Of a stretch of DNA of 60,741 nucleotides, positions 3,804 to 39,218 are shown piece by piece; positions within the stretch are counted from its first letter, which is position 1; each line of letters starts with the position of its first letter. The DNA is from Gammaproteobacteria bacterium. GTDB taxonomy: Bacteria; Pseudomonadota; Gammaproteobacteria; UBA9214. The position numbers and the translations under genes were made by a program. The stretch covers positions 1 through 60,741 of the forward strand of contig JAOUBY010000005.1 of assembly GCA_029860045.1 (NCBI GenBank). Reading direction: 5' to 3'. Below the pieces are notes generated by a model. That model searched no databases, was not told where the DNA came from, and worked only from the letters and a program-made list of their open reading frames with translations.

Positions 3804-3960
3804 GATACAGCCCTGTACCACCTCATTAATCGCTGCATATTGACCGTCACTCTGTGTCATTACATGTCCCTGCCAGGCATACGGATCAGACCGTCGCATC
3901 AGTATCCGTGTGCTGCCGACCGGTTTCTGAGAAACGAGTCAAAAATACGTCGCCCGTAAC

Positions 3961-3976
3961 TGTGACCGCCATCACA
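3961..3976. promoter_or_regulatory. CRP box (perfect core)
   Basis: TGTGA-CCGCCA-TCACA. TATTGT at 3998-4003 fits class II (-41.5) spacing for the 4098 gene. Confidence 0.65.
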
Positions 3977-3979
3977 TTT

Positions 3980-3995
3980 TGGGAATATATTCCCA
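3980..3995. promoter_or_regulatory. Perfect 16-bp palindrome, possible operator
   Basis: TGGGAATATATTCCCA lies directly between the CRP box and the candidate -10. Confidence 0.4.
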
Positions 3996-4097
3996 TTTAT
4001 TGTAGAATGCAATCCATCGTTACATGCCGGTAATCCACTGCCGGCACATTGAGCCCCGGAGCAGAAATCCGGGAGAAAACCGGATCGCTTCCCTGCC

Positions 4098-5399: not shown

Positions 5400-7449
5400 C
5401 ATGACCAGGAGCACCTGGCATACATTCCCCCTGGGCGTCATGGCGACGCTGGCGCGTGTCTGCCTGCTTTGCATGCTGTCAGCACTGTGCAACCCGTCAG
5501 TTACGCTTGCGGACACTACCAAACTGGATGAATACCATGCCGCGGTACGTGTGCGCGACATGGACAGGGCAGCGAAAATTCTCTTGCCGCTGGCCAGGGA
5601 CGGCATGGCGGAGGCCCAGTACCAGCTGGCCGCGCTGTACCGCTCGGGCAATGGAGTAGAAAAGGACCACCGTATGGCATTCCAGTGGCTGCAGAAGGCA
5701 GCTGCACAGGACCATGCACAGGCACAGTACAACCTTGGTGTCATGTACGAACAGGGCTGGGGTACCGAAGCAGATTCGAAGAATGCCTTGCACTGGTACC
5801 GGCTTGCCGCCAGCCACGGACACAAAATGGCTGTCCGTAAACTGGAAGACACTCCTGCAGACAATGCAATTCAGAGTGATGTCAGCGCAGAAGAATTGTT
5901 ACGCCGCGCGGTCATCAGGGACGACCTGTCATCCACCCGTTCCCTGCTTGTGGCCGGCGCGGATGTCGATAGTAGCGACGATTACCAGAGAACAATCCTG
6001 ATGGATGCCGCAGAACTGGGTAACCCCGAGATCTTCGCACTGCTGGTTAGCCACAGCAGAAAACCGGACTTACAGGATGCCAGCGGCGAAACCGCTCTGC
6101 ATATCGCAGTCAGTAACGACCGCCAGCCGATCGTAAAACTACTGCTTTCAGCGGGGGCCAGCGCCGGCATCGCGGATCAACGCGGTAACACGCCACTTAT
6201 GATTGCCGCCGGCAGAAACCAGCTCACCATTTTCAGAGCACTGCTTGACAGTCACTCACGCCCCGAAGCCAGTAACAGCGCCGGACTGACGGCTGCTGAT
6301 ATTGCTGCGCGCAAGCAAAACGAAAAAATCCTGAAACTGTTGTCGGGGCATGGCATATACCCTGCCCGAAGCCATACAAAGTCACCCGCACATGCCTCGG
6401 AACTGCTCGCTCTGCAGGAAGAAACAGCGGCAGACAGACCTTCACCGCAGCATGCCATGTCTCCACTAAACGAGGCAGCATGGCGCGGACAGGAAAACAT
6501 CGTGCGCGAACTCATCAGGCAAGACGCCAGCATCAACAGCCGTGATAGCGAAGGTCATACCGCATTGTCGCGCGCCGCATGGAAGGGACACAGTGCAATT
6601 GTCGAATTACTCCTGGACAGTGGAGCCCGCGCGGACATTGTACTCGATGGCGGCATAACGCCGCTGATGTACGGCACGCTCTCGGGTGATGATGCTACGG
6701 TTGTTGCATTACTGGATAGCGGCGTTGATACCAACGCCCGACAGCACGACGGACGCACCGCATTACACCTGGCTGTAGCCGGCGACTACACAGATATTGT
6801 CCGGCTACTGCTGTTACATCAGGCCGACATCGCGCTGGCCGATTCAGATGACAGAACCGTGCTGATGCTGGCAGCGCAGCTCGACAGTCCGCACATACTG
6901 GGAGACCTGCTGGACCGCAACCCCGCCATCAATGCCCGCGACCGCAATGCACATACGGCACTCTGGCACGCAACCCGCAATGGGCTGCCACGTAACACCG
7001 GTTTACTGCTGCAGCGGGGCGCCGATCCGGAGGTTAGTGACCGCAAGGGTCATACCGCGCTGACACTGGCTGCCTCACGGGCAGACAAGGTAATCGCCAA
7101 GCAGCTGGTCAGGCACAAGGCCGATATCAACGTCCGCACCCATGATGAAAACACGCCCCTGATGCTGGCCGCACAGGCGGGTGCTGACGGGCTTGCACAA
7201 CACCTGATCGATTCCGGCGCCGAGGTGAATGCCAGGAACCGGCAGGGCGATACCGCGCTGATGCTGGCCGTCGCCCGTGGCGAGACGGTAACTGTCCGCA
7301 CCCTGCTGGAAGGCGGCGCGGATCTGCGCATCCGTAACAACAGCCGCGCACGGGCACGCGATATTGCCACCGCCGGGGGTTACGACAATATATTAGATCT
7401 GCTGAATAAACATGAGTCCCGGTCCAGCTGGAAGGCCAAATGGTTCTGA
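5386..7449 (+). CDS. Exported Sel1-repeat plus ankyrin-repeat protein
   Basis: Signal-like N-terminus. Sel1 repeats (AQYQLAALY..G.GV, AQYNLGVMY..G.G). Many ankyrin repeats (GxTAL/TPL..A). Confidence 0.9.
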   Translation: MAPADMTRSTWHTFPLGVMATLARVCLLCMLSALCNPSVTLADTTKLDEYHAAVRVRDMDRAAKILLPLARDGMAEAQYQLAALYRSGNGVEKDHRMAFQWLQKAAAQDHAQAQYNLGVMYEQGWGTEADSKNALHWYRLAASHGHKMAVRKLEDTPADNAIQSDVSAEELLRRAVIRDDLSSTRSLLVAGADVDSSDDYQRTILMDAAELGNPEIFALLVSHSRKPDLQDASGETALHIAVSNDRQPIVKLLLSAGASAGIADQRGNTPLMIAAGRNQLTIFRALLDSHSRPEASNSAGLTAADIAARKQNEKILKLLSGHGIYPARSHTKSPAHASELLALQEETAADRPSPQHAMSPLNEAAWRGQENIVRELIRQDASINSRDSEGHTALSRAAWKGHSAIVELLLDSGARADIVLDGGITPLMYGTLSGDDATVVALLDSGVDTNARQHDGRTALHLAVAGDYTDIVRLLLLHQADIALADSDDRTVLMLAAQLDSPHILGDLLDRNPAINARDRNAHTALWHATRNGLPRNTGLLLQRGADPEVSDRKGHTALTLAASRADKVIAKQLVRHKADINVRTHDENTPLMLAAQAGADGLAQHLIDSGAEVNARNRQGDTALMLAVARGETVTVRTLLEGGADLRIRNNSRARARDIATAGGYDNILDLLNKHESRSSWKAKWF

Positions 7450-10699: not shown

Positions 10700-12355
10700 A
10701 TGACACCGTATACGAAAACACTGGTTGGCCATCTCACAAACGTCGAGACCGGGTCGCTTTCCGCGCGCCTGGTCGAGGACAACGAGGGCAGACTGCCACG
10801 CATTTCGGCCGATGGAGATGACGATATGAGGGCCCAGCCCGGCTCCTACGTCGCCATCATCCAGGGCGACATCCGGATACTGGCCGTCATCACCTCGATC
10901 TGTGAAATGCCGGACCCGAACGGCTCGGGTAGCTGCAGGAGCATTCAGCTCATCCCGCTGGGCGAAATTGTACGCAGCGGCACCTTTCAGAACGGTATCA
11001 AGAGCTACCCGGTCACCGGCGCCGAAGTACACACCGTCGACAAGGAAGATGTTGAATCGATCTTCATCAAGTTTCGCTCACAGGGTTACGCAGTTGGCAA
11101 TGCCACCGCTGATGAAAGCATTGATGTCTGCCTCGACCCGGCCGCACTGTTTGGCCGTCACTTTGCGATCCTGGGCCAGTCAGGTGCAGGTAAATCCTGG
11201 ACTGTAGCCAACCTGTTGCAACGCGCCGTCAAGACCATGCCCAATGCGCACATCGTCCTGCTCGACCTGCATGGCGAATACAGCTGGCTGAATAATGAGG
11301 GCAAACGGCAGTATGCATTTACTCAGGATACCGCCCGCTATATCGATGCACGCGACCTGGAAATTCCCTACTGGCTGATGACCTTCTCCGAGCTGGTCGA
11401 CCTGCTGATCGATCGCGCCGATGCGTCAGCCTCATCACAGATTTCTTTTCTGCGCGACAGCGTGCATGAGCTGCGCAACAAGGCGAACAAGGACCTCGGC
11501 ATCGGCGATTTATCAATCGACGCGCCGGTCTTCTTCGACCTGCAGGAGTTGTATAAACACTTCGAGGCCGCCAACAAGATGACCTCGAACTTCGGCAAGG
11601 ACAAGGGTCCGCTGGCCGGCCTGTTTGACCAGTTCCTCATGCGCCTGCAGAGCCGCATGAACGATGTGCGTTATGACTTCCTGCTCAATCCGAAGCATCG
11701 CACCTCGTCTGATACGCTGCCCGGCCTGTTGCGGGACTTTGTCGGCCTGGGTGAGCCACGCGCACAGATCACCATTATCGACATGAGTTCGGTGCCGTTT
11801 GATGTGCGCCCTGTAGTAACTGCGCAGGTCGGACGTGTTGCGTTCGAATTCAACTACTGGAACCCGATGTTCAAGGAATTCCCGCTGTTGCTGGTCTGCG
11901 AAGAGGCACATGCCTACATTCCGCGCGATGGCAACTCGCAGTTCGAGGGTACCCGACAGTCCATGCAACGTATCGCCAAGGAGGGACGCAAGTACGGTGT
12001 AGGCCTTGCCGTGGTGACACAGCGTCCGCATGACCTGTCCGAAACGGTACTGGCCCAGTGCAATACCTTCGTTTGCCTGCGCCTGACCAACCCGGACGAC
12101 CAGGATTACGTGCGTGATCTGGTACCGGAAGCCGAGCGTGACTTTATCGACATCCTGTCATCGCTTGGCCAGGGTGAGGCCATGATCATGGGGTTGGCAG
12201 TACCTCTGCCGACTCGCGTACAACTGTTCAAGCCGGACCCGCCACCGAACAGTTCCAGCGTGGATTTCTACCAACACTGGAGCTCCGGGCTGGAAGATCT
12301 CGATGTGGATGATATTGTGAATCGCTGGCGCCGGCAGGACCGCCTGCACCGCTAG
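10700..12355 (+). CDS. HerA/DUF87-family P-loop ATPase
   Basis: N-terminal HAS-barrel-like region. RHFAILGQSGAGKS (Walker A), LDLHGEY, LVCEEAH (Walker B), KEGRKYG, TQRP. Start uncertain (10589 or 10700). Confidence 0.88.
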   Translation: MTPYTKTLVGHLTNVETGSLSARLVEDNEGRLPRISADGDDDMRAQPGSYVAIIQGDIRILAVITSICEMPDPNGSGSCRSIQLIPLGEIVRSGTFQNGIKSYPVTGAEVHTVDKEDVESIFIKFRSQGYAVGNATADESIDVCLDPAALFGRHFAILGQSGAGKSWTVANLLQRAVKTMPNAHIVLLDLHGEYSWLNNEGKRQYAFTQDTARYIDARDLEIPYWLMTFSELVDLLIDRADASASSQISFLRDSVHELRNKANKDLGIGDLSIDAPVFFDLQELYKHFEAANKMTSNFGKDKGPLAGLFDQFLMRLQSRMNDVRYDFLLNPKHRTSSDTLPGLLRDFVGLGEPRAQITIIDMSSVPFDVRPVVTAQVGRVAFEFNYWNPMFKEFPLLLVCEEAHAYIPRDGNSQFEGTRQSMQRIAKEGRKYGVGLAVVTQRPHDLSETVLAQCNTFVCLRLTNPDDQDYVRDLVPEAERDFIDILSSLGQGEAMIMGLAVPLPTRVQLFKPDPPPNSSSVDFYQHWSSGLEDLDVDDIVNRWRRQDRLHR

Positions 12356-12372
12356 GGAAAACTACCCGGCGG

Positions 12373-13569
12373 CTATCCGGCCGCCTCTTCCTCGATCAGT
12401 TCGTCGCGCCCGATCAGGCGCAGGATCTGCTCGCGCGCGGCAAGCCCGTCCTTGTATCCAAGTTCCATCAGTTCCTTGCAGAACGGCGCGTCAAACATCA
12501 GGTAACTCATCAGTGGTCGGCCCTCGCGCGTCAATGCGCCAATCCCCTTGAGCAGGACGCGTACCGAGCGAGGGAAGTCACCCACGTGCCGGGCCACGAT
12601 CTCGCGCACGTCGGTACTCGGTGAAATTACCAGGTAATCGATCTGGCGCAGCGCTGTATCCTTGTACTCGACGCGGTTGTCCTTTGTTTCGGAGATGGTG
12701 TGGTTGATGCGCCGCATCCGTTCGATGTCAGCATCCAGGCTGTCCATGAACAGGCTGTCAAAGATATAACCGGAAATCTGCCCAAAGGAAGGATATTTGA
12801 CATCACGGTCGTCTTCCGGCGGCATGTCCTGTTTCGGGTTCCTGACACCGATAATCAGCAGGCGGTTGGCACCCATGTGCAAGGCCGGGCTCAGTGGCGC
12901 GGTCTGGCGCATTGAACCATCCCCGAAGAATTCATTGCGCAACTTGACGGCAGGAAACAGCACCGGGATTGCCGAAGACGCCATCAGGTGGTTGAGAGTC
13001 AACTCGGTTGGTTGCCCGATGCGGCGGGTACGCTTCCAGGGCTGCAGCTCCTTCAGCCCCTGGTAGAAGGTGACCGAGTTGTCACTGGTATAGCCGGATG
13101 TAGTTACTGACACGGCGCGCAAGGCGCCGCTGTCTATTGCCTGCTGGATTCTGGCAAAACGGATATGCCGTTCCATCAACTCGCGCAACGGTGAATTGTC
13201 CAGTACCGACCGGGGCTGCTTTTTTGTCAGCCCGCCGAGCAGGAACGTGGTGGCCCAGCGCCAGGCGCTGACGAAGGCCGTCCAGCCATCGGTCTTGAAT
13301 ACCTTGCCGATATGAAAGTTGGCCCAGATCCCCCACAGGCGGTCGACACCTTCCCTGAAACGGTTTGCACTGCTGGCCAGCAAGACGGCATTCAGCGCCC
13401 CTGACGAGGTGCCGCAAATCACCGGAAACGGGTTTTCCGCGTCTTCCGGCAGCATGTCGGCAATCGCCTTCAGTACCCCGGCCTGGTAGGCATTACGCGC
13501 ACCACCGCCCGGCAGGATCAGCCCCGTGACCTGCTCTTCCTGCTTCTTTTTAAATGAAATCCAGTACAT
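12373..13569 (-). CDS. Patatin-like phospholipase
   Basis: GGGARNAY glycine loop, GTSSG nucleophile, SSAIP..FP and DGS motifs. Confidence 0.92.
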   Translation of the reverse strand: MYWISFKKKQEEQVTGLILPGGGARNAYQAGVLKAIADMLPEDAENPFPVICGTSSGALNAVLLASSANRFREGVDRLWGIWANFHIGKVFKTDGWTAFVSAWRWATTFLLGGLTKKQPRSVLDNSPLRELMERHIRFARIQQAIDSGALRAVSVTTSGYTSDNSVTFYQGLKELQPWKRTRRIGQPTELTLNHLMASSAIPVLFPAVKLRNEFFGDGSMRQTAPLSPALHMGANRLLIIGVRNPKQDMPPEDDRDVKYPSFGQISGYIFDSLFMDSLDADIERMRRINHTISETKDNRVEYKDTALRQIDYLVISPSTDVREIVARHVGDFPRSVRVLLKGIGALTREGRPLMSYLMFDAPFCKELMELGYKDGLAAREQILRLIGRDELIEEEAAG

Positions 13570-13589
13570 AGAGCAGTATTTTTTTCCAC

Positions 13590-23409: not shown

Positions 23410-23423
23410 TTGATCTATATCAA
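23410..23423 (-). promoter_or_regulatory. FNR/DNR box for the nirC operon
   Basis: Perfect TTGAT-CTAT-ATCAA. Confidence 0.85.
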
Positions 23424-25776: not shown

Positions 25777-27561
25777 ATGGCCAGTCAGAAACCCATCTTC
25801 GGCTTGATGTCGCGCAAGGTTCTGTTCGGAACCACTCTCGCTGCGGCCCTGTTTTTCATGATAGTCGGTGTCATCTTCTGGGGCGGCTTCAATACGGTTA
25901 TGGAGGCCACCAACACCCTGTCATTCTGTATTTCCTGTCATGAAATGGAAGAAAACGTTTATCAGGAATACACAAAAACCATTCACTACACCAACCGCAG
26001 TGGTGTACGCGCCACCTGCTCCGATTGTCACGTACCTGATCCATGGGTGCACAAGGTTGTGCGTAAAATCCAGGCCAGTAACGAGGTAGTACATAAAGTA
26101 CTGGGTTCGATTAATACCCCGGAGAAGTTCGATAAAAAACGCCTTAAACTGGCAAAAAATGTCTGGCGTGCAATGAAAACGACGGACTCGCGCGAATGCC
26201 GCAACTGTCATGATTTCGATTCCATGAATCCGGAAGATCAGAAAAAACGTTCGCGCAAGCAGCATATCAACGGCATGGAAGCAGGCAATACCTGTATCGA
26301 CTGCCACAAGGGGATAGCGCATACAAAGGTGCACGACCAGCTGACTGATGAAGAATTGACGGCACTGGAACAGCCGCACCCGGAGAACAAGCGCCCGATA
26401 CCGCCACAGTGGCAGGCGTTTATCGATGCCCAGGCCGCCGGCAAGGCCCCTGCAAAAGAAGAGGAAGAAGTCGAGGAAGAGGTCGATGAAACGACCTCCA
26501 CGGCTGTGGAACAGGCCCCTGAAGCCACAACAGAAAGCGCAGCTGCTGCTCCAGCCGCTGCCGCCGCAGCAGCTGCGTCTACCGGCCCTGCAGCGAACAT
26601 CGACTGGTCAGGCATCGAGCCAAGGGAAGTTGTCCTGTTCTACCCCGGCCAGGCTTCAATGGAATGGACCCTGAAAGGCAGTGACCATGGTGGTAAACGT
26701 GCCTTTGTAACGGGTGACCGTTGCTTTGAGTGTCACGAAGATGAGGAAGTTGATATCGGTGATCTGATCATATCCGGTGACAAGGCCGAAGCTACGCCTA
26801 TTCCCGGCAAGCGTGGCAGCATCGCGGTCAACATTCAGGCGGCGCACGACGCCAGTAACCTGTACATGCGCTTCCAGTGGGAAGACGGTGAGCACGCGCC
26901 CATTCCGTTTGCCGACGGTGGCAAGATGGATCCGGACAACCCGGTCAAGCTGGCCATCATGCTGGCCACAGACAATGAAGATGATCCGAAAGTGGAATAT
27001 GCAGAACGTGCAGGTTGCTGGCAGTCCTGTCACCACGATGCCAATTACATGCCTCACCAGCCTGACAAGGCCACCCTGGCGGACAGTCCGCTGGCTGCGC
27101 GACTCGATCTGAGCATGGGCTTCACCAAGTACCTCAAAGAAAGTCGCACTTCAATCGAGATTGAAGGCAAGGAAGGCAAGATGCGCGGTGGCTGGGGCAA
27201 TCTGAAAGATGAAGCCGCGATCCGGGCAGCGCTGGAGAACGGTTCGTTCATGGACCTGCTGCGCTACAAGTCCGGCACCGGTGAATCCGAAGATGGTTAT
27301 ATCCTGGCCGAGCGCGTCATGACCGGCGGTCAGGGGGTGAATTTCACGGGCAGCCTCAAGGATGGTGTATGGACGGTTGAAATGACCCGCAAGCTGACCT
27401 CGGACAAGCCCGGCGACATCAGCATGAGCACTGATGAGTGGTATAACATTGGTTTCGCGATTCACGATGATTACAGCAACAGCCGCTTCCATCATGTGTC
27501 ACTGGGGCTGAAGCTGGGCTTTGATGATGAAGATGCAGAAATCAATGCAATAGGGAAGTAA
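25777..27561 (+). CDS. nirT: NirT (NapC-family tetraheme) fused to a NirB-like cytochrome c552/EB_dh domain
   Basis: TM helix plus WGGFNT..EATNT..FCISCHEM and three more CxxCH. Acidic/Ala-rich linker. LFYPGQ.S.EW, CFECH, GCWQSCH, GFAIHDD....RFHHVS. Confidence 0.9.
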   Translation: MASQKPIFGLMSRKVLFGTTLAAALFFMIVGVIFWGGFNTVMEATNTLSFCISCHEMEENVYQEYTKTIHYTNRSGVRATCSDCHVPDPWVHKVVRKIQASNEVVHKVLGSINTPEKFDKKRLKLAKNVWRAMKTTDSRECRNCHDFDSMNPEDQKKRSRKQHINGMEAGNTCIDCHKGIAHTKVHDQLTDEELTALEQPHPENKRPIPPQWQAFIDAQAAGKAPAKEEEEVEEEVDETTSTAVEQAPEATTESAAAAPAAAAAAAASTGPAANIDWSGIEPREVVLFYPGQASMEWTLKGSDHGGKRAFVTGDRCFECHEDEEVDIGDLIISGDKAEATPIPGKRGSIAVNIQAAHDASNLYMRFQWEDGEHAPIPFADGGKMDPDNPVKLAIMLATDNEDDPKVEYAERAGCWQSCHHDANYMPHQPDKATLADSPLAARLDLSMGFTKYLKESRTSIEIEGKEGKMRGGWGNLKDEAAIRAALENGSFMDLLRYKSGTGESEDGYILAERVMTGGQGVNFTGSLKDGVWTVEMTRKLTSDKPGDISMSTDEWYNIGFAIHDDYSNSRFHHVSLGLKLGFDDEDAEINAIGK

Positions 27562-27617: not shown

Positions 27618-27675
27618 GCGAACTGAGCCTCGGTTATGATTGTCTCAACCACGATCATATGAAGAGAACAAGCCC

Positions 27676-28008
27676 ATGAAGCGTCAATCATTGCTACTGG
27701 TTATTTTGCTGGCAGTTTTTAATCATGGCGTATTCGCCAATGGTGATGATAGCCAGCTGGTGATTATCAAGGATTACAAGTTTGTCCCGCAGGAAGTTAC
27801 CATCAAGCGTGGCCAGACCCTGCGCTGGGAAAATCGTGAAAAACGCCAGTATCACAGCGTCTGGTTCGAGGCGCTGGGCGAAGATGAGCCCGAAGACTAC
27901 CTGTTCCCCGATGATTCCTATGAGCGTGAATTCACGCAAGCGGGTTCTTTTCCCTACCGTTGTGGTCCACACCCTGAAATGACGGGTACGGTACACGTAG
28001 CAGAGTAA
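27676..28008 (+). CDS. Small blue copper protein (amicyanin/plastocyanin-like cupredoxin)
   Basis: Signal peptide. F.P..VTI..G..L.W.N, YHSV, YRCGPHPEMTG type-1 Cu site. Confidence 0.9.
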   Translation: MKRQSLLLVILLAVFNHGVFANGDDSQLVIIKDYKFVPQEVTIKRGQTLRWENREKRQYHSVWFEALGEDEPEDYLFPDDSYEREFTQAGSFPYRCGPHPEMTGTVHVAE

Positions 28009-30611: not shown

Positions 30612-31178
30612 CTACTGCACACCCTTGCTGATCAGGAAGCTGCTGTATTGCTTGTCGGTACCGTTGATATGGTCGATCAGCCAGCTCTTTAAGTAATTGA
30701 AGCCATGGCGCATGGCCAGGTCATGGTCTTCCTCATACTCGGCCAGCACTGCATCGACCTCTCTAATCATCGCATTATGCTGGGCCTTGTGAGCCTCAAA
30801 ATCAGGATAGCCATTCTCCTCCATCAACCCTTCCTCGTAGGAGAAATGTGTCTTGGTATAGTCGACCAGTTCAGCCAGTGCCTCCCGTTCAAATTCCTCA
30901 CCGGTGGAATAATCCACGGCAGTCGCCAGCTGGTTGATCAGATTGATGAGTTTTCTGTGCTGCTGATCGATGGAATCGATGCCAACACTGTACTCATCCC
31001 TCCATTCAATATAGGGTTTTGACGACAGCTTTCTGTAAATAAATGGAATAGCCACCAGGATGGCCACCAGGGCCCAGGTCAGGGGACTGGTGGGTCCGGC
31101 CATGAACCCCAGGATCACTGCTGTGATGAGACTCAGCATGAGCAGCGCAAGCCCGAACATACCCAGATTTTTATTCAT
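30612..31178 (-). CDS. Membrane-anchored bacteriohemerythrin (2 TM helices plus hemerythrin)
   Basis: W..EYSVGI..ID.QH, HFSYEE, H..QH, WL.DHI..TD. Confidence 0.92.
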   Translation of the reverse strand: MNKNLGMFGLALLMLSLITAVILGFMAGPTSPLTWALVAILVAIPFIYRKLSSKPYIEWRDEYSVGIDSIDQQHRKLINLINQLATAVDYSTGEEFEREALAELVDYTKTHFSYEEGLMEENGYPDFEAHKAQHNAMIREVDAVLAEYEEDHDLAMRHGFNYLKSWLIDHINGTDKQYSSFLISKGVQ

Positions 31179-31358: not shown

Positions 31359-31372
31359 TTGATCTCCATCAA
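31359..31372. promoter_or_regulatory. FNR/DNR box (fits the hemerythrin promoter)
   Basis: Perfect TTGAT-CTCC-ATCAA. Minus-strand TACATT at 31336-31331 sits at class II spacing. Confidence 0.8.
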
Positions 31373-31753: not shown

Positions 31754-31767
31754 TTGATCCAGATCAA
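31754..31767 (+). promoter_or_regulatory. FNR/DNR box for the heme-copper (eNOR-like) operon
   Basis: Perfect TTGAT-CCAG-ATCAA. Confidence 0.82.
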
Positions 31768-32053: not shown

Positions 32054-32587
32054 ATGGCCATTACTCCTCCTCCCGAGCGTGTCTGGTGGAATATACCGAT
32101 CGCGCGTACCGAGATTACCTGGATTGTTATCGCCTTCGCCTGGGGACTGTTGATGTTCTCGGCAATGATCTACTGGCACATCGAGGGTGAACAAAACCTT
32201 TCCAATGAATCCTATCGCACCACACCGGCCGCCTTTTCAGAAAAGGCTAATGCCATGGTGGAGCAATACCAGGTGCGCGAGGAGGCCGGCATGCCTGTCG
32301 TGCACCCGCCACCCGGCAGCGATGTCTACATGATCGCACGCCTGTGGCAGTGGTGGCCTATCCTGGAATTCGAGAAAGACCAGACCTATCGTCTGCATCT
32401 CTCCTCCATGGACTGGCAACACGGATTCTCACTACAGCCGGTCAACATCAACCTGCAGGTCCATCCCAACTACGACATGGTCGTAACACTGACACCCAAT
32501 GAGTCAGGCGAATTCGGGGTGGTGTGTAACGAATTCTGCGGCATTGGCCACCACAACATGATCGGCAAGATCTACGTTACGGAATAA
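32054..32587 (+). CDS. Heme-copper oxidoreductase subunit II (CuA, B-family-like)
   Basis: One TM helix. D.QHGFS and CNEFCGIGHHNM CuA ligands. Confidence 0.92.
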   Translation: MAITPPPERVWWNIPIARTEITWIVIAFAWGLLMFSAMIYWHIEGEQNLSNESYRTTPAAFSEKANAMVEQYQVREEAGMPVVHPPPGSDVYMIARLWQWWPILEFEKDQTYRLHLSSMDWQHGFSLQPVNINLQVHPNYDMVVTLTPNESGEFGVVCNEFCGIGHHNMIGKIYVTE

Positions 32588-32599
32588 GGGAGACACGAG

Positions 32600-34276
32600 A
32601 TGTCAGACTTCAATCATCGCGTTTGCCCGGCCACCGGGTTACGTATTCACAAGTCCGCTGAAAATCTAATCAAGGCAAATGCCGTTGTAGCCATTGTATT
32701 CCTTGCCGTGGGTGGTTTATTCGGCCTGATGGTCGCACTGACCCGCTGGCCCGGCGTGCACCTGCTGCCGGCCGACTGGTTCTATCTGGTACTCACCGGT
32801 CACGGTCTGGATGTGCTGCTGGTGTGGATTATCTTTTTCGAGATGGCGGTACTGTATTTTGCCTCGGCAATATTGCTCAATTCGCGACTGGCGGGGCCAC
32901 GCTGGGGCTGGGCCGCGTTTGCACTCATGCTGGTCGGCGCCATCATGACAAATGTTGCTGTTTTACAAGGCAATTCCAGTGTCATGTTCACCTCCTACGT
33001 GCCGATGCAGGCCGCGCCACATTTCTACCTGGGGCTGGTGCTGTTCGCGGTCGGTGCCCTGATCGGCTGTTTCGTGTTCTTCGGCACGCTGGTCGTCGCC
33101 AAGCAGGAAAAGACCTACAAGGGCTCGATACCACTGGTCACCTTTGGCGCCATGACCGCAGCCATCATTGCGGTATTTACTATTGCTTCGGGTGCAATCA
33201 TCCTGGTCCCGACCTTCCTGTGGTCGGTAGGCATCATCGGAAATATTGATACCCTGATGTACAAGACCATCTGGTGGGCCATGGGTCATTCCTCCCAGCA
33301 GATCAATGTTGCAGCCCATGTCTCGCTCTGGTATCTGATAGCAGCCGTTGTACTGGGTTCCAAACCGCTGTCCGAAAAAGTCAGCCGCATGGCATTCCTG
33401 ATGTATATCCTGTTCCTGCAACTTGCCAGTGCGCATCACCTGCTGGTTGAGCCGGGCATCAGTTCCTCGTGGAAAATCTTCAACACCAGTTATGCCATGT
33501 ACCTCGCGGTACTCGGCAGCATGATCCATGGCATGTCTATACCGGGTGCAATCGAGTCCGCCCAGCGTGCCCGTGGTTTCACCAACGGCCTGTTCGAGTG
33601 GTTACGCAAGGCACCGTGGGGTAACCCGGCCTTCTCCGGCATGTTCATGTCGCTGGTTATGTTCGGCTTCCTCGGTGGCATCACCGGCGTGGTGTTGGGC
33701 ACCGAACAGATCAACCTGATCATGCACAACACCCTGTATGTCCCGGGTCATTTCCATGCAACCGTGGTAGCCGGCACCACCCTGACCTTCATGGCGGCTA
33801 CCTACCTGATTGTTCCACTGATCTTTCAACGTGAGTTGATCATGAAGGGCCTGGCCAGGTGGCAACCCTACCTGTTCGGTCTCGGAGTGATGGGTATCTC
33901 GGTGTTCATGATGGGTGCCGGTACGCTGGGTGTACCCAGGCGTGTCTGGGACATCACCGGAGCTGACGCCCTGATCAAGTATGACTACTCCGGCGCAGCC
34001 TACCTGATGATGGGCCTGAACGGCATCAGCGCGATTATGGCAGCCCTTGGTGGCCTACTCTTTGTCATCATCATTGTCGGCTCAGTACTGTTTGGCAAAC
34101 GCACCGGTGACAAGCCGCTGGAAGGCATGACCATGACCACCGCCGCCAATTATGGCAGTGATGAACATCCCAAGATTCCAGGGACTGTCGTGCTGGTCGC
34201 GATATTCTTCACGGCCTTTATCCTTTACTACTTCGTCAACTGGAAGTACCTGGCCGAAGTATGGCCACTGCGCTAA
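32600..34276 (+). CDS. Heme-copper oxidoreductase subunit I, eNOR-type nitric oxide reductase (B-family derived)
   Basis: LTGHG, SAHHL and GHFH ligands. Helix VI reads GHSSQQIN, with Gln where O2 reductases have the cross-linked Tyr. Confidence 0.82.
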   Translation: MSDFNHRVCPATGLRIHKSAENLIKANAVVAIVFLAVGGLFGLMVALTRWPGVHLLPADWFYLVLTGHGLDVLLVWIIFFEMAVLYFASAILLNSRLAGPRWGWAAFALMLVGAIMTNVAVLQGNSSVMFTSYVPMQAAPHFYLGLVLFAVGALIGCFVFFGTLVVAKQEKTYKGSIPLVTFGAMTAAIIAVFTIASGAIILVPTFLWSVGIIGNIDTLMYKTIWWAMGHSSQQINVAAHVSLWYLIAAVVLGSKPLSEKVSRMAFLMYILFLQLASAHHLLVEPGISSSWKIFNTSYAMYLAVLGSMIHGMSIPGAIESAQRARGFTNGLFEWLRKAPWGNPAFSGMFMSLVMFGFLGGITGVVLGTEQINLIMHNTLYVPGHFHATVVAGTTLTFMAATYLIVPLIFQRELIMKGLARWQPYLFGLGVMGISVFMMGAGTLGVPRRVWDITGADALIKYDYSGAAYLMMGLNGISAIMAALGGLLFVIIIVGSVLFGKRTGDKPLEGMTMTTAANYGSDEHPKIPGTVVLVAIFFTAFILYYFVNWKYLAEVWPLR

Positions 34277-35163
34277 TCAGCAATGGAAATGGCATCCCGG
34301 TGAAGGAGACCCTGGCACTCGTCTACTCGGTGTTCAAGGTCCGCATCGGGACTGCCATCATGCTGACCGCGCTGGCGGGCATCGCCGTGGCGCCCGGGCC
34401 GGCACCGGAGGCATGGCAGATTGCAGTGCTTGCCCTTGCCGTACTGCTGTCCTCGGCCAGTGCCGGCGCCTTCAACATGTACATGGAACGTGACCTCGAT
34501 GCGCGCATGAACCGTACCCGCAACCGGCCGTTTGTAACCGGCCGGTTTGTGGCAAACGGTTACTGGCTATCCGGGATTGTCCTGTTGCTGGTGGTTGCCA
34601 TCGCGGCGGCGGCACTCGCCACCAACGCCATTGCTGCGTTCTACGTGTTCCTGGGCGCCTTTGTCTATGGCGTGGTGTACACCGTCTGGCTGAAACGGCG
34701 CACCTGGATGAATATTGTCGTTGGCGGGCTGGCCGGCAGCTTTGCCATTCTTGCCGGGGCCGCAGCAGTGGACCCCGGACTGGCGCCGGCGCCCCTGATA
34801 CTGGCAGTCGTACTGTTCCTGTGGACCCCGCCCCACTTCTGGAGCCTGGCCTTCAAGTACAAGGATGACTACGCAGCGGCCGGCGTACCCATGTTACCGG
34901 TTGTGGTGAATGACAAGACAGCTGCGAACATCATCCTTGGTCATACTGTCCTGCTGGTTGCACTGTCACTGGCACCCGTCATGTATGGCATGGGCTGGAT
35001 TTACCTGCTGGGCGCCATTACCGGTGGCGGCTGGTTTGTCCGCACCAGCATTGGCCTGGCACGCAACCCGTCAGCAAAGACCGCGATGACCAATTTTCAT
35101 GCCTCGCTGTTACAACTGAGCCTGCTGCTGGTCGGTGCGATCCTTGATGCGTGGCTGGTCTAG
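34261..35163 (+). CDS. cyoE: Protoheme IX farnesyltransferase (heme O synthase)
   Basis: N...ERDLDARMNRTRNRP, YTVWLKRRT, LWTPPHFWSLA...DDY..AGVPMLPV. Confidence 0.94.
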   Translation: MATALISNGNGIPVKETLALVYSVFKVRIGTAIMLTALAGIAVAPGPAPEAWQIAVLALAVLLSSASAGAFNMYMERDLDARMNRTRNRPFVTGRFVANGYWLSGIVLLLVVAIAAAALATNAIAAFYVFLGAFVYGVVYTVWLKRRTWMNIVVGGLAGSFAILAGAAAVDPGLAPAPLILAVVLFLWTPPHFWSLAFKYKDDYAAAGVPMLPVVVNDKTAANIILGHTVLLVALSLAPVMYGMGWIYLLGAITGGGWFVRTSIGLARNPSAKTAMTNFHASLLQLSLLLVGAILDAWLV

Positions 35164-35292
35164 CATCGTGTCTGCATACACCACTGCGTTACTTTAGTCG
35201 AAACCTAACCAAACACCGGTTTAAGGTAGCATAGTCATGCCAGCATGACATGCCCGCCAGATGATTGTCGAGTCCGATTGCAATACTTACCA

Positions 35293-36123
35293 ATGCGTTC
35301 ATATCAGAAAATATTAAGCCTTGTTCTCACGGTCCTGCTAATAACCGGCGCAGCCTCTGCTGCTGCACAGGAAGCTGCGGCAACTTATGACGAGAAACAG
35401 TCACTCGCGCGCAGCCAGGCCGTGCAGGGCCATACCGTTGGTGATTACACCTTCCTCGATGGCAACGGAAATTCAGTATCGCTGGGCGCGTTGCGTGGCA
35501 AGCCGGTTATCATCAGCCTGATCTACACCAGCTGCTACCATGTCTGCCCGACTGTAACCACCAACCTGGCAAAGGTTATCGGAATCGCACGGGATGCCCT
35601 GGGCAATGACAGCTTCTCGGTGCTGACCATCGGCTTTGACACGGCAGCTGATACGCCGGATCGGATGCGACTGTTCGCCAAACAGAGAAATATTGATCTC
35701 GATAACTGGCATTTTGTCAGCGTAGATACCGACACCCTGCAACGGCTGTCCGATGATGTCGGCTTCAGCTATTTCAGCACCCCCAAGGGTTTTGACCACA
35801 TGATCCAGGCCACCCTGCTTGATGGCGAGGGCAAGGTCTATCGACAGATCTACGGCATGGCCCCGGAACCACCGGCACTGGTCGAGCCGCTCAAGGAACT
35901 GCTGTACGGCAAACAGGTGGCCGCCACACCGATCGAGGGCATGCTGAACAACATCAAGCTGTTCTGTGTCGTGTACGACCCGACCACCGGGATGTACCGT
36001 TTTGACTATTCGATTTTCATCGGCCTGGCCATCGGGCTACTGACGCTGGGTGGCACTGCCTGGTTCATTGTCCGCGCCTGGCGCAGGTCCGCTCCGGGCG
36101 GTCCGGCACGGGGGAACTCATGA
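35293..36123 (+). CDS. SCO1/SenC copper chaperone with C-terminal TM helix
   Basis: Signal peptide. YTSCYHVCP and FDH motifs. Confidence 0.9.
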   Translation: MRSYQKILSLVLTVLLITGAASAAAQEAAATYDEKQSLARSQAVQGHTVGDYTFLDGNGNSVSLGALRGKPVIISLIYTSCYHVCPTVTTNLAKVIGIARDALGNDSFSVLTIGFDTAADTPDRMRLFAKQRNIDLDNWHFVSVDTDTLQRLSDDVGFSYFSTPKGFDHMIQATLLDGEGKVYRQIYGMAPEPPALVEPLKELLYGKQVAATPIEGMLNNIKLFCVVYDPTTGMYRFDYSIFIGLAIGLLTLGGTAWFIVRAWRRSAPGGPARGNS

Positions 36124-37703
36124 CTGGCCTGCGCACCGCTGCCCGATCGGTATTTGAATTCGCCGAAAAACTGTTTGACCGGGCCTTTGGTCCTGACTGG
36201 AACCCGCTCTACCACCTGGGCACACTGGGCTGGTTTTTTTACTGGATTGTGATTGTCAGTGGCATCTATCTCTATATCTTTTTTGACACCGGGATCACCC
36301 AGGCCTACGAATCACTGGAATACATCACCAATGTGCAGTGGTATGCCGGGGGGGTCATGCGCAGCCTGCATCGCTATGCCTCGGATGCACTGATCATTGT
36401 CATGATGTTGCACCTGGTGCGTGAATTCGTCATGGACCGTTACCGCGGCGCACGCTGGTTCAGCTGGTTTACCGGGGTGCCATTGATATGGCTGGTATTT
36501 GCCTGCGGCATCAGCGGCTACTGGATGGTATGGGACGTGCTCGCTCAATACATCGCCATTGCCTCGACCGAATGGCTCGATTCACTGGGCATCTTCGGCC
36601 AGTCTATTGCACGCAACTTCCTGAATGAAGAAACATTGAGCGGCCGCTTCTTCACACTCATGGTATTCATTCACATTGCCGTTCCGCTATTCATGCTGCT
36701 GGTCATGTGGATACACATCCAGCGACAGAGAAATGCCCGGGTCAATCCACCCGTCGGCCTGGCTGTCGGCACACTGGGCATGCTACTGGTACTTTCCCTC
36801 ATCGAGCCAGCAGTCAGTCAGGCACCCGCCAACCTGAATATCGCACCGGCCGTTATCGACTTTGACTGGTTCTACCTGGCAGGCTATCCGTTACTGGACT
36901 GGCTGCCCGGCCTGGTTGTCTGGGCACTGGGTGGCGGGGCTACACTGTTACTGCTGGTGATGCCCTGGCTGCCGCCCGGACGTCGCCGCACGGCCGCACA
37001 GGTTGACCTCGACAACTGCAATGGCTGTGGCCGCTGTGTGGAAGACTGCCCGTTCAGCGCCGTGGACCTGCAACAACGTACCGACGGGGCCGCCTTTAGC
37101 GAGGAAGCGATTGTCAGCAATAATCTGTGCACCGGCTGCGGCATCTGTGTCGGCGCCTGCCCCACTTCAACACCCTTCCGGCGCAGCGGCAAACTGGTGC
37201 CCGGGATCAACCTGCCCGACACGGACCTGCACACCCTGCGCGAACAGACGCTGGCCGCGACATCGCCACTGAGCGGGATTGGACGCGTCATGGTATACGG
37301 CTGCGAGCACGGACCGGACCTGGAGAAACTGCGGGACGCAGACACGGCCGTATTGAAACTGCCGTGTATTGCCATGCTGCCGCCCTCTTTTATCGATTTT
37401 CTGATTTCACGCAAGCATGTCGATGGCGTTTTACTGACCGGTTGCGCTGAAGGGGACTGTCACTACCGGCTCGGCCAGCAGTGGGCAGGACAGCGTCTGG
37501 CCGGAGAGCGCGATCCGTACCTGCGTGCGCGGGTGCCGCGCGAGCGGGTCGACACTTTCTGGGCCGGCCTCACCAGCAACAGGAAACTCAGGGACGAGCT
37601 GAAAAACTTCCGCACCCGCCTGTCAGTACTGCCCGCTATCGAGCGCAACAAACGCCAGCCCGTGATCAAACGAGTTATCGAGGGTGACGAAAGCCATGAA
37701 TAG
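36120..37703 (+). CDS. Cytochrome b (bc-complex-like) fused to a 2[4Fe-4S] ferredoxin and an MvhD/FlpD-like domain
   Basis: RSLHRY..MLHLV and FIHIA..WIH heme b His pairs, DWFY. CNGCGRCVEDCP and CTGCGICVGACP. YGC..LPC..LTGC.EGDCHY. Confidence 0.88.
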   Translation: MTGLRTAARSVFEFAEKLFDRAFGPDWNPLYHLGTLGWFFYWIVIVSGIYLYIFFDTGITQAYESLEYITNVQWYAGGVMRSLHRYASDALIIVMMLHLVREFVMDRYRGARWFSWFTGVPLIWLVFACGISGYWMVWDVLAQYIAIASTEWLDSLGIFGQSIARNFLNEETLSGRFFTLMVFIHIAVPLFMLLVMWIHIQRQRNARVNPPVGLAVGTLGMLLVLSLIEPAVSQAPANLNIAPAVIDFDWFYLAGYPLLDWLPGLVVWALGGGATLLLLVMPWLPPGRRRTAAQVDLDNCNGCGRCVEDCPFSAVDLQQRTDGAAFSEEAIVSNNLCTGCGICVGACPTSTPFRRSGKLVPGINLPDTDLHTLREQTLAATSPLSGIGRVMVYGCEHGPDLEKLRDADTAVLKLPCIAMLPPSFIDFLISRKHVDGVLLTGCAEGDCHYRLGQQWAGQRLAGERDPYLRARVPRERVDTFWAGLTSNRKLRDELKNFRTRLSVLPAIERNKRQPVIKRVIEGDESHE

Positions 37704-38199
37704 GGTACTCGCCTACATCGGCCAGGCTATCGCCTACACGCTGTTTGCTTTTGTGATCGGCTATCTAGCCACCTCGCCTCCCTACACCCACCTGGAGCCG
37801 GGCATGGCAGTCATCAAGCTGAGCTTCAGTCACGCAGGTGAGCACATCAAGGAATGCCGGCGGTTAACCCAGGAGGAACTGAATGCGCTGCCACCCAATA
37901 TGCGCAGGCCAACAGACTGCCCACGCGAACGGGTACCGCTACTGGTCGAACTTGAACTGGATGGTGAAACCATTTACCACGAGCTGCTACCCCCCTCCGG
38001 CCTGGCCAGTGACGGTGCCTCAACGGCATATAAAAAATTCCCGATAAGCGCGGGGGAACACCGTATCGTGGCAAGATTGCGTGAAAGAAGGGAGACCGAC
38101 GGTTTTGATTATGAGAAAGCGGGAGAGATCAGCCTGGCACCCCAACAGAATTTTGTAATTGATTTTCGACCCGAACTGGGCGGCTTCCTGTTCCTATGA
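37696..38199 (+). CDS. Membrane-anchored hypothetical protein with a two-Cys motif
   Basis: N-terminal TM helix. LSFSHAG..ECRRL..PPNMR...CPRER. Overlaps the cytochrome b fusion stop. Confidence 0.78.
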   Translation: MNRVLAYIGQAIAYTLFAFVIGYLATSPPYTHLEPGMAVIKLSFSHAGEHIKECRRLTQEELNALPPNMRRPTDCPRERVPLLVELELDGETIYHELLPPSGLASDGASTAYKKFPISAGEHRIVARLRERRETDGFDYEKAGEISLAPQQNFVIDFRPELGGFLFL

Positions 38200-38206
38200 G
38201 GTTTCC

Positions 38207-38602
38207 ATGTCGATGATTGAATGGAAAGATGAATTCTCGGTCGGCATCCCCGATGTTGACCACGAACACCAACAGCTTATCGGGCTGATCAACGAACTGC
38301 ACAACGCCATGTCAGGCAAAAACGCCGCCATGACCGTGACAGATTTTCTCGGCGAGATTCACGCGCATGTCGCAGCACACTTCGCGCTGGAAGAAAAAAT
38401 AATGCGCGAGAAGAAATATGACCAGTACGAAGACCACAAGCGAGACCACGAACGTCTGCTCGATGAAATCAGTGACATCATGGATGACTACGAAGAAAAC
38501 GCCTTTTACAGTGACGAGGTGTTTACAAGCACCCTCGAACACTGGTTTAGTGATCACTTCAAGACCAGGGACGCACGCCTGCATAAGCACCTGGGTGTAT
38601 AA
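38207..38602 (+). CDS. Bacteriohemerythrin
   Basis: IEW..EFSVGI..VDHEH, HFALEE, H..DH, WF..HF...D. Confidence 0.92.
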   Translation: MSMIEWKDEFSVGIPDVDHEHQQLIGLINELHNAMSGKNAAMTVTDFLGEIHAHVAAHFALEEKIMREKKYDQYEDHKRDHERLLDEISDIMDDYEENAFYSDEVFTSTLEHWFSDHFKTRDARLHKHLGV

Positions 38603-38710: not shown

Positions 38711-39124
38711 TTACAGAAATAGCGGGAACAACTTGCTCTTCTCCAGGTTGATGCGATCACTTACAAGAGCAAATATCTCACGCGTCTCCTGCGTGAACTC
38801 ATCATGCCCGGTCGCGTCACCCCCACGGGTGGCATGACACCAGCGCTTTATATAGCTCGATAAAATCGTCCTGAGCTGGTGGGTGTTATTGATAAACCTG
38901 GTGGCAACTTCATTGATGCTCTTGTCCTCATGCGAGAGCAGTTCCGCGTACATCGCCCGGTCCTCATGGTCCAGGTGCGCGCGTATCTTTTCACTGAATC
39001 TTGACAGCAACTCGCAGAACACCGGATTACCCCTCATGTCCGGGTCGGCAATCAATACATCCAGCACCGCACACAAATCAGTGAGCTCCTGGTTTTCCCT
39101 GCTGAATTCCGCAACATCCACCAT
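38711..39124 (-). CDS. Hemerythrin/HHE-domain protein (divergent)
   Basis: AAGGAGG RBS. HLDHED..Y..L and RI.LE...LFP motifs. The first His ligand appears to be missing. Confidence 0.72.
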   Translation of the reverse strand: MVDVAEFSRENQELTDLCAVLDVLIADPDMRGNPVFCELLSRFSEKIRAHLDHEDRAMYAELLSHEDKSINEVATRFINNTHQLRTILSSYIKRWCHATRGGDATGHDEFTQETREIFALVSDRINLEKSKLFPLFL

Positions 39125-39204
39125 GATTATCTCCTCCTTAACTAAATCCTGAATATTTGTTATCTGTGGGACTCTGAAGCTAGGCAATCAGGCGCGCAAA
39201 ATCA

Positions 39205-39218
39205 ATGATGTAAATCAA
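39205..39218 (-). promoter_or_regulatory. FNR-type box upstream of the HHE gene
   Basis: TTGAT-TTAC-ATCAT on the minus strand. Confidence 0.6.

Follow-up and report, generated by a model that had tools for sequence, protein, structure and literature searches.

A Rieske-less cytochrome b–ferredoxin–MvhD fusion and its partner subunit accompany eNOR-type nitric oxide reductase operons as a candidate electron-transfer module

What is a bc-type cytochrome b, fused to ferredoxin motifs and an MvhD domain, doing inside the operon of an eNOR-type nitric oxide (NO) reductase? The question is raised by a stretch of 60,741 nt from a Gammaproteobacteria bacterium (UBA9214; contig JAOUBY010000005.1 of assembly GCA_029860045.1), referred to here as the window, in which seven closely spaced genes on the + strand (32054-38602) form the operon. 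Only in 2024 was eNOR established as an NO reductase, and it is found widely among environmental denitrifiers that act as sources or sinks of N2O. An earlier note on this DNA had drawn attention to the fusion gene and to the small gene that follows it, and had proposed a new complex carrying electrons across the membrane. The two genes, referred to here as the module, and their parts are as follows.

36120-37703, + strand: cytochrome b–Fe-S–MvhD fusion, 527 amino acids (aa), from the open reading frame (ORF) and Pfam
36120-36989, + strand: cytochrome b domain of the fusion, residues 1-290, helices A-F, from Pfam, conservation and a profile against solved b6
36996-37169, + strand: two [4Fe-4S] ferredoxin motifs of the fusion, residues 293-350, cytoplasmic by topology, from Pfam and conserved Cys
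37257-37625, + strand: MvhD/FlpD-like domain of the fusion, residues about 380-502, from Pfam, conserved Cys and solved-chain matches
37696-38199, + strand: p167, the partner subunit, 167 aa, with one transmembrane helix and a periplasmic β-sandwich predicted

All three parts of the fusion were recognized by Pfam: Cytochrome_B (PF00033) on residues 28-200 (E 5.9e-17, 62.5 bits, cut-off 27.2), Fer4 on two stretches inside residues 293-350, above the cut-offs, and FlpD/MvhD (PF02662) on residues 409-502 (E 7e-11, 42.6 bits, cut-off 22.3). NCBIfam gave sub-threshold matches only, namely the Rieske-less ExtP cytochrome b as the nearest model, cytochrome b6, and the C-terminal part of HdrA2 (fusion residues 292-507 against 571-774 of 777, E 1.7e-18, under the cut-off). 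A 27-sequence family profile matched solved cytochrome b6 with E 1.2e-39 and the MvhD chain 5odc_D with E 6.3e-16, solved MvhD chains as a group falling at about 1e-16 to 1e-17. With the MvhD stretch alone, 9sw2_D (9.3e-9) and 5odc_D (4.2e-7) were recovered; C416, C442 and C447 of the fusion align to Cys in both. With an E cut-off of 1e-30, matches to the fusion fill 532 clusters at 50% identity, so that a chance ORF can be set aside.

Conservation was followed in 27 relatives of the fusion (26-54% identity) and in further sets of 13 and 71 sequences. H84/H98 and H185/H199, each pair 14 residues apart, are invariant in the 27 and in the 71 sequences, with H84 and H185 assigned to the outer haem and H98 and H199 to the inner. 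The Cys of two CxxCxxCxxxCP motifs (C300/C303/C306/C310 and C337/C340/C343/C347) are all invariant in the 27 relatives, as are C395, C416 and C442 of the MvhD domain, with C447 kept in at least 90%. Located where PEWY stands in bc complexes is DWFY (D249-W250-F251-Y252), of which D249 is kept in at least 90% of the 27- and 71-sequence sets and is invariant in the 13-sequence set; the conserved D139, Q143 and D249-W250 were placed on the outer face. No Qi-type His was seen after H199 in the 13- and 71-sequence sets, where an invariant or near-invariant R202 stands in its place, and in the profile alignment the helix-cd sequence differs from the Qo lining of b6 and bc1. The fusion is a real bc-type cytochrome b with two His pairs, two ferredoxin motifs and an MvhD domain, confirming the architecture read by the earlier note, including DWFY in place of PEWY.

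The fusion is tightly joined to the genes on either side: its start (36120) overlaps the stop of the upstream SCO gene (36123) by 4 bases, and the ATG of p167 (37696) overlaps the fusion stop (37703) by 8 bases, both overlaps being as previously noted. For p167, 760 homologues at E <= 0.001 were found among 1120 candidates, and because these are mostly 167 aa long, its start was fixed at 37696. The protein belongs to no Pfam or NCBIfam family, and of 90 homologues no more than 3 reach any Pfam model even at E <= 1. Relatives of the fusion, taken as representatives at 50% identity, form two size classes of about 525 and about 690 aa, and p167 corresponds to the extra ~170 C-terminal residues of the long class (P0248, 692 aa: BLASTP E 5e-47, 46% identity). 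Because relatives carry p167 fused at their C-terminus, p167 is a true subunit of the fusion complex. Split (P0247, P0249) and fused (P0248, P0250, P0252) relatives are similarly near the window fusion, at 46-55% identity; fusion or fission of p167 has presumably occurred among close kin.

In bc complexes the N-terminus of cytochrome b lies in the cytoplasm. The 692-aa fused relative is predicted to fold into a single compact unit (pLDDT 93.1, pTM 0.92), the first ~290 residues of which align to bc1 cytochrome b, and its order is six helices, the Fe-S and MvhD part, a seventh helix and a β-sandwich; the AlphaFold2 model of p167 (pLDDT 94.4) likewise has a transmembrane helix at residues 2-26 followed by a β-sandwich. 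With a cytoplasmic N-terminus, six helices, and then the helix of p167, the Fe-S/MvhD part would be cytoplasmic and the p167 β-sandwich periplasmic. The soluble domain of p167 is thus placed, by topology of the models, in the periplasm; fused relatives, models and topology all agree with the earlier assignment of the 37696 protein as the partner on that side of the membrane.

Four residues of p167, H46, C54, C75 and H122, are kept at >=90%, bearing out the description of this protein as carrying His and two Cys. Among the 90 sequences, R79 and G102 are invariant, R77, D89, D106 and Y112 are likewise kept at >=90%, and position 130 is Asp in 83, with Glu in the window protein. C54 and C75 are both present in 81 of the 90, both absent from 9, and found singly in none. 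This joint retention or loss suggests a periplasmic disulfide rather than a metal site, and a 2Cys/2His metal or Rieske-like cluster was rejected on the same counts. No twin-arginine signal was seen in the p167 sequence. Foldseek found generic β-sandwiches only (best match E 9.7e-4 with TM 0.31; top TM-score 0.38), and VIA-align returned as its best match the luminal domain of 8jkv_A (Z 9.1, root-mean-square deviation 2.7 over 94 residues), followed by 8tu9_B, titled HGSNAT (Z 8.7). No cupredoxin, Rieske or cytochrome fold was prominent in either search, and an Atlas search with p167 gave hypothetical proteins only.

The distribution of the module was examined at several depths. Among 8000 candidates scored, 5249 proteins matched the fusion at E <= 0.001, all 120 matches listed carrying PF00033, Fer4 families and PF02662, and the fusion was found at at least 657 places in species-representative genomes. 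The best 80 of these (52-81% identity), from metagenome-assembled genomes labelled Alpha- and Gammaproteobacteria, were taken as genome loci and scored by local tblastn with the window proteins, eNOR I being counted at >=45% identity. The gene order in them is the same as in the window. eNOR I is present in 71 of the 80, the remaining 9 having <6 kb of flank on one side; SCO was found in 80, p167 in 79, the operon hemerythrin in 76 and CtaB in 52. A metagenome scan with distant fused forms gave 77 loci (28-44% identity to the query P0269; 29-40% to the window fusion by tblastn), from which 11 weak or partial ones were dropped and 66 kept. eNOR I occurs in 29 of these, 36 are too short to tell, and 1 (L153), with long flanks, is without it; SCO is present in 38 of the 66 and the operon hemerythrin in none, the latter gene being conserved in proteobacterial loci only.

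Whole genomes were also scored. In the Gammaproteobacteria sample (400 scored genomes), eNOR I was found at E <= 1e-80 in 22 and the fusion at E <= 1e-30 in 27, with both in 22 of 22; in the Pseudomonadota sample (401 genomes) the numbers were 50 and 53, with both in 49 of 50. Combined, and with G000 counted once, 70 of 71 eNOR I genomes carry the fusion, and the fusion occurs without a full eNOR I in 9 of about 730 eNOR I-negative genomes. Since related genomes are not independent of one another, and since each sample is a draw, these figures are to be read as counts and not tests. The 9 are assemblies of 240-870 contigs, 77-98% complete, and in one of the 5 that come from the Gammaproteobacteria sample (G359) the contig of the fusion also bears a truncated eNOR I. 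In family f268 the fusion and eNOR lie 12 kb to 0.9 Mb apart or on separate contigs and still co-occur; in two f268 genomes the fusion and p167 stay paired, and eNOR II-I-(CtaB)-SCO stay grouped. Two genomes from the genus to which the window belongs (G212 and G367, 98-100% complete) yielded neither eNOR I nor the fusion, which marks the eNOR operon as accessory within the genus. The module tracks eNOR near one-to-one in sampled Pseudomonadota, as expected if the fusion belongs to an eNOR-type operon, and the converse, a fusion found mostly without eNOR, is contradicted by both the 70 of 71 genomes and the 71 of 80 loci.

The remaining features of the operon and its upstream region are given here.

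31359-31372, + strand: perfect TTGAT-N4-ATCAA box upstream of the operon
31754-31767, + strand: second perfect TTGAT-N4-ATCAA box, 287 bases ahead of the subunit II start
32054-32587, + strand: eNOR II, haem-copper oxidase (HCO) subunit II, with one transmembrane helix and a CuA cupredoxin domain
32600-34276, + strand: eNOR I, HCO subunit I of the B-family-derived NO reductase (NOR) type (Pfam COX1 E 3.5e-66)
34261-35163, + strand: haem o synthase (CtaB; TIGR01473 263 bits, cut-off 210)
35245-36123, + strand: SCO1/SenC copper chaperone (PF02630 E 4.5e-12)
38207-38602, + strand: bacteriohemerythrin, the operon's final gene (NF033749 E 2e-30)

The name eNOR rests here on features of subunits I and II and on operon order rather than on a tree with reference eNORs. 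In subunit II, H123, C158, E160, C162, H166 and M169 are invariant in 63 sequences, with all CuA ligands kept. The best solved match of subunit I is ba3 oxidase, of the B family (E 2.2e-44), and four His-containing motifs are retained in the alignment (H; GH; HH; HFH), which we take to be the six metal and haem ligands of ba3. Subunit I has GHSSQQ, with a Gln four residues past the GH histidine, where ba3 has GHPIVY, the Tyr of which is presumably the cross-linked Tyr. A missing cross-linked Tyr marks B-family-derived NOR families according to PMC11214002, and because this Tyr is missing and the His motifs and CuA ligands are kept, subunits I and II fit the families described there. The operon order also agrees with that of the Ferrigenium eNOR operon, as described in a preprint (10.64898/2026.01.22.701106).

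eNOR loci commonly hold a second COX1-like gene, divergent in sequence (23-31% identity to eNOR I, weak Pfam COX1) and 420-490 aa long (L001:9625-11019, L098:461-1885 and 12181-13578, L110:10896-12374, L111:14631-16025, L115:6145-7404, L139:4334-5809); it was not found in the window's genome, and the HH motif is unaligned in the L001 copy. It may be the preprint's 'eNOR scaffold protein'. The SCO gene of the window has CYHVC as its CxxxC motif, a signal-like N-terminus, and an extra C-terminal hydrophobic anchor helix followed by basic residues, the Pfam SCO match spanning residues 66-154 only.

For the role of the module, we give slightly better than even weight to the reading that the fusion and p167 form one membrane complex, an exporter, dedicated to eNOR, of cytoplasmic electrons to the periplasmic face. 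Electrons would enter at the cytoplasmic MvhD-type [2Fe-2S] domain, from an NAD(P)H-linked flavoprotein or a ferredoxin, reach the inner haem (H98/H199) by way of the two [4Fe-4S] clusters, move across the membrane onto the outer haem (H84/H185), and leave at the periplasmic face, where the loops of D139, Q143 and D249-W250 would be capped by the p167 β-sandwich. Direction, donor and acceptor are what we infer from several observations. Outward flow is favoured because relatives carry NADH- or NADPH-oxidizing partners, because diflavin reductases act as donors, because it follows the membrane potential, as established in bioenergetics, and because the cytoplasmic face lacks a Qi-type His and carries the Fe-S arm. 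That the electrons would serve eNOR is argued from the near one-to-one tie between the two.

The candidate donors come from relatives of the module. A NuoF-like protein (FMN-binding 51K plus NADH 4Fe-4S region) was found by tblastn as a neighbour of the module in 14 of the 77 metagenome loci, was confirmed by Pfam in four (L089, L098, L132 and L139), and is, in distant loci, often encoded between two paralogous module copies. Of the 65 metagenome loci in which a hit covers the cytochrome b domain, 12 have two cytochrome b copies, and none of the 80 genome loci does; family f265 has tandem cytochrome b copies. Genome G214 encodes, directly after a second SCO at the end of its eNOR operon (L181, G214:C65, 1172-3712, - strand), an 846-aa protein in which a cytochrome b, 53% identical to that of the window, is joined to Flavodoxin_1, FAD_binding_1 and NAD_binding_1 domains. 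The C-terminal domains together look like a diflavin NADPH reductase, and enzymes of this type hand electrons outward, from NADPH to acceptors that contain haem. In G214, p167 and the second SCO are separated by three ORFs that match no Pfam family. Of the two sources named in the earlier note, cytoplasmic donors or quinol, the first is therefore favoured, by the NuoF-like neighbours and the one diflavin fusion, and quinol is the less favoured.

Of the two acceptors named in the earlier note, the CuA of eNOR and Cu/haem assembly, neither is clearly favoured. It is possible, and put forward tentatively, that the electrons serve the metals and cofactors of eNOR during assembly or upkeep, together with SCO, by reduction of Cu(II) or Fe(III) or in support of haem a synthesis. 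In the window, as in G214, a SCO gene comes directly before a gene for a cytochrome b, SCO shares the locus in 80 of 80 genome and 38 of 66 metagenome loci, the fusion gene is placed after ctaB and sco, and a bacteriohemerythrin is present in the operon. The arrangement also parallels that of NOX/FRE-type ferric and cupric reductases. The parts list further resembles that of the cupric reductase CcoG, as described in PMC7558416, and the need of eNOR for haem a, made by an O2-dependent enzyme according to PMC11214002, is counted for the same role. Replacement of the haem a synthase by the module was rejected as unneeded, the window's own genome having CtaA on contig C64. The locus itself includes CtaA in 3 of 80 genome and 2 of 77 metagenome loci, and the module may support this enzyme. 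A normal CcoG is likewise encoded in the genome, on contig C72.

Supply of eNOR itself during catalysis is a somewhat weaker possibility. The elaborate paralogy, the flavoprotein partners and a distant branch linked to a respiratory complex speak for it, and no dedicated c-type donor is encoded in the operon. Counted against it are the lack of a cofactor in p167, the cupredoxin gene in the nir cluster, and the fact that CuA subunits normally draw electrons from soluble carriers. In favour of the exporter reading as a whole, both cytochrome b proteins of the Ferrigenium eNOR operon are reported in a proteome from denitrifying culture in the preprint (10.64898/2026.01.22.701106).

Several observations weigh against electron export to eNOR as a whole. 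No cofactor-binding motif or redox fold was found in p167 by Pfam, NCBIfam or fold searches, which leaves the exit of electrons from the outer haem unexplained. Isolated R. marinus eNOR turns over with TMPD/ascorbate, as reported in PMC11214002, so that the module is not needed for turnover in vitro, a point that also tells against catalytic supply. D249-W250, standing at the PEWY place, could be a retained quinol site, allowing flow in the opposite direction. One eNOR I-positive genome, G489 (97% complete), yielded no fusion by protein or profile search, and the distant branch at L108 and L153 adjoins a Rieske/cytochrome b pair without eNOR. Finally, a NuoF-like or diflavin donor gene was found in 0 of the 80 proteobacterial loci and not in the window.

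Among other explanations, the one that survives best, although we consider it unlikely, is a Q-cycle-like bifurcating quinol oxidase. Here quinol would be oxidized at the outer face, one electron going to a high-potential sink, with eNOR replacing Rieske and c1, and the other passing via the two haems to the Fe-S/MvhD arm to reduce ferredoxin or NAD(P)+. The bc-type fold with both haems is kept, D139, Q143 and D249-W250 are conserved on the outer face, MvhD domains occur in bifurcating Hdr complexes and solved HdrA/MvhD chains match the fusion, and the distant branch noted above sits beside its Rieske/cytochrome b pair. Coupling of NO reduction to NAD+ reduction is proposed in the Ferrigenium preprint (10.64898/2026.01.22.701106), and proposed NAD(P)H generation is reportedly mentioned for anammox Rieske/cytochrome b complexes in PMC12954380. 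By our own estimate, however, an electron from ubiquinol could be driven inward, against the membrane potential and up to about -320 mV, only if the sink lay far above the potential usual for CuA. No one-electron acceptor like the Rieske cluster stands by the site, p167 being without a cofactor motif; the helix-cd Qo lining of b6 and bc1 is not retained; many carriers are labelled Rhodobacteraceae, Hyphomicrobiaceae or Kiloniellaceae, groups that are largely heterotrophic and for which reverse electron flow would be unneeded; and the diflavin fusion of G214 indicates NADPH as the donor. A fuller version, in which eNOR and the Rieske-less cytochrome b form a supercomplex with a new quinol-based bifurcation, NO taking the high-potential electron and the Fe-S/MvhD arm reducing ferredoxin or NAD(P)+, is distinctly unlikely.

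The missing Rieske partner itself is observed at the level of the contig: neither a Rieske nor a c1 gene is present on it, as the earlier note had it, and no Rieske protein was found among the operon ORFs scanned. Elsewhere in the genome a canonical cytochrome b and a Rieske gene are adjacent on contig C51, another Rieske match lies on C109, and a c1 fragment on C154. HdrA, HdrBC and hydrogenase were not found among the window ORFs scanned, the rest of the genome not having been searched for these. The accompanying premise, that a cytochrome b normally needs a Rieske protein, was too strong; Rieske-less PetB-type cytochromes are known, for example in the Cbc complexes of Geobacter, and ExtP, under the cut-off, is the nearest NCBIfam model.

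That such Rieske-less PetB-type quinol oxidoreductases exist, with ExtP as the best NCBIfam match, also lends something to a further alternative, a general oxidoreductase that links NAD(P)H or ferredoxin with quinone, in either direction, and shares only regulation and an operon with eNOR. The f268 pair unlinked from eNOR and the one long locus without eNOR (L153) point the same way. It is nonetheless quite improbable, since the module is found in 70 of 71 eNOR I-positive against 9 of about 730 eNOR I-negative genomes, those 9 being fragmented, since two same-genus genomes lack both genes, and since module and eNOR co-occur even where they are not linked. A subunit pair with a mainly structural or scaffolding role in an eNOR supercomplex, its redox cofactors irrelevant to electron supply, would suit the plain β-sandwich of p167 and the 'eNOR scaffold protein of unknown function' that the preprint names as common in eNOR operons, but is highly improbable given that haem and cluster ligands are invariant or nearly so over deep divergence, as working cofactors would be.

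Returning to the candidate exporter, its likeness to known systems is partial in each case. With bc1 and b6f it shares a di-haem core of four helices, B and D of which carry the His pairs, a match above the PF00033 cut-off, and best solved matches to b6 and bc1 cytochrome b, and its helices, six plus the one of p167, equal in number the four plus three of b6 and subunit IV. It differs in that its operon has no Rieske or c-type subunit, in having xDWF for PEWY, in lacking, in the profile alignment, the Cys at the haem ci position of b6, and in that the Fe-S/MvhD arm occupies the Qi-site face and a β-sandwich caps the outer face. With the HdrA2/MvhD proteins of Hdr-Mvh and Flx-Hdr it shares the order of ferredoxin then MvhD, the match to solved MvhD chains and the aligned Cys, and differs in being fused to a membrane cytochrome b. 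The NOX/FRE/STEAP proteins have a cytoplasmic NAD(P)H-linked reductase leading through two stacked b haems to the outer face, as in the G214 paralogue; their haem-binding fold is unrelated, and the entry arm of the module is Fe-S/MvhD, not FAD. A 2006 metagenome paper on Accumulibacter reportedly describes a 'novel cytochrome b/b6' fused to NAD(P)-binding domains.

CcoG (FixG), as described in PMC7558416, is a membrane protein, an assembly factor of cbb3 oxidase, whose gene follows the oxidase genes; it holds two [4Fe-4S] clusters and ends in a periplasmic Ig-like domain. In contrast to the module it has no haems, and the two have no sequence relation. Homology of p167 to the CcoG Ig-like domain was considered and rejected (hhalign probability 1.8% against the FixG_C profile), and no PF11614, Fer4_18 or Fer4_5 match was found by Pfam for the fusion or the 90 p167 sequences. 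The closest counterpart is the eNOR operon of Ferrigenium straubiae (10.64898/2026.01.22.701106), which shares eNOR II, eNOR I, haem o synthase and sco1, together with a 'cytochrome b and [Fe-S] cluster' protein and a cytochrome b-[Fe-S]-FAD-NADH protein. The preprint calls such cytochrome b genes 'rather unusual', whereas they are the rule in the eNOR genomes sampled here; its available part mentions neither the MvhD domain nor p167, and the likeness is one of description. Apart from this preprint, no paper, solved structure or Pfam architecture description was found for the combination. No cytochrome b, ferredoxin or hemerythrin beside eNOR is mentioned in the main text and six spreadsheets of PMC11214002; Accumulibacter (WP_015766299.1) is among the eNOR references in its Dataset S4, as are R. 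marinus (WP_012842681.1), Alicycliphilus, Halovivax, Hydrogenobacter and Sphaerobacter. Judged by sequence, the building blocks are thus of known families, and their combination would be a cytochrome b complex, specific to eNOR and of predicted function, that has an Fe-S/MvhD entry arm and a new subunit on the periplasmic side but no Rieske protein.

The surroundings of the operon are those of a denitrification region. With up to one mismatch, TTGAT-N4-ATCAA, which we take to be an FNR/DNR-type consensus, occurs 13 times in the window, where 1.6 are expected, and these include boxes upstream of nirS at 23410 and 23567; co-regulation of the eNOR operon, and so of the module, with nirS is likely. 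A promoter and terminator scan within the operon gave nothing exceeding chance. The nirS island upstream of the operon contains two nirS, nirF, nirDLGH-like genes and nirJ, as well as a NirT-type tetrahaem fusion, a cupredoxin and a cytochrome c peroxidase, with more hemerythrin genes in the region. The tetrahaem gene (25777-27561, + strand), between the two nirS genes, encodes a NapC/NirT-type cytochrome fused to an EB_dh (ethylbenzene dehydrogenase-like haem-binding) domain; the cupredoxin gene (27640-28008) comes after it, and homologues of both are found near the module in L004, L031 and L049. Three hemerythrin-domain genes flank the operon (30612-31178, - strand; 38207-38602, + strand; 38711-39187, - strand), the third preceded by a near-perfect FNR-type box at 39205.

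Other arrangements were seen at a few distant loci. At L108:191-4937 and L153:5722-11535 the order is (cytochrome c)-Rieske-long cytochrome b-two small ORFs-cytochrome b plus Fer4 (400 aa)-separate MvhD, with no eNOR near; the ORF sizes of L155 match this arrangement. B12-binding radical SAM genes lie near the fusion-p167 pair only at L090:2492-8505, L101:4542-5990 and L176 (G419:C4) 3905-6448, where the pair is not beside eNOR, and are too rare to build on. In G419 a methyltransferase too is near the pair, and NifS-like and IscA-like genes are divergent.

In sampled Pseudomonadota, then, nearly every eNOR is accompanied by a two-subunit haem/Fe-S membrane module of predicted function, and accounts of eNOR electron supply or assembly are incomplete without it. 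As a genomic marker of eNOR-type operons, too, the fusion-p167 pair is sharper than subunit I, for which oxidase is the usual annotation. A module that feeds eNOR from NAD(P)H or ferredoxin would uncouple NO reduction from the cytochrome c pool; one that acts as a reductase in assembly would be the haem-based equivalent of CcoG; and one that bifurcates would be a new site of energy coupling, through which denitrifiers would harvest reducing power from NO reduction.

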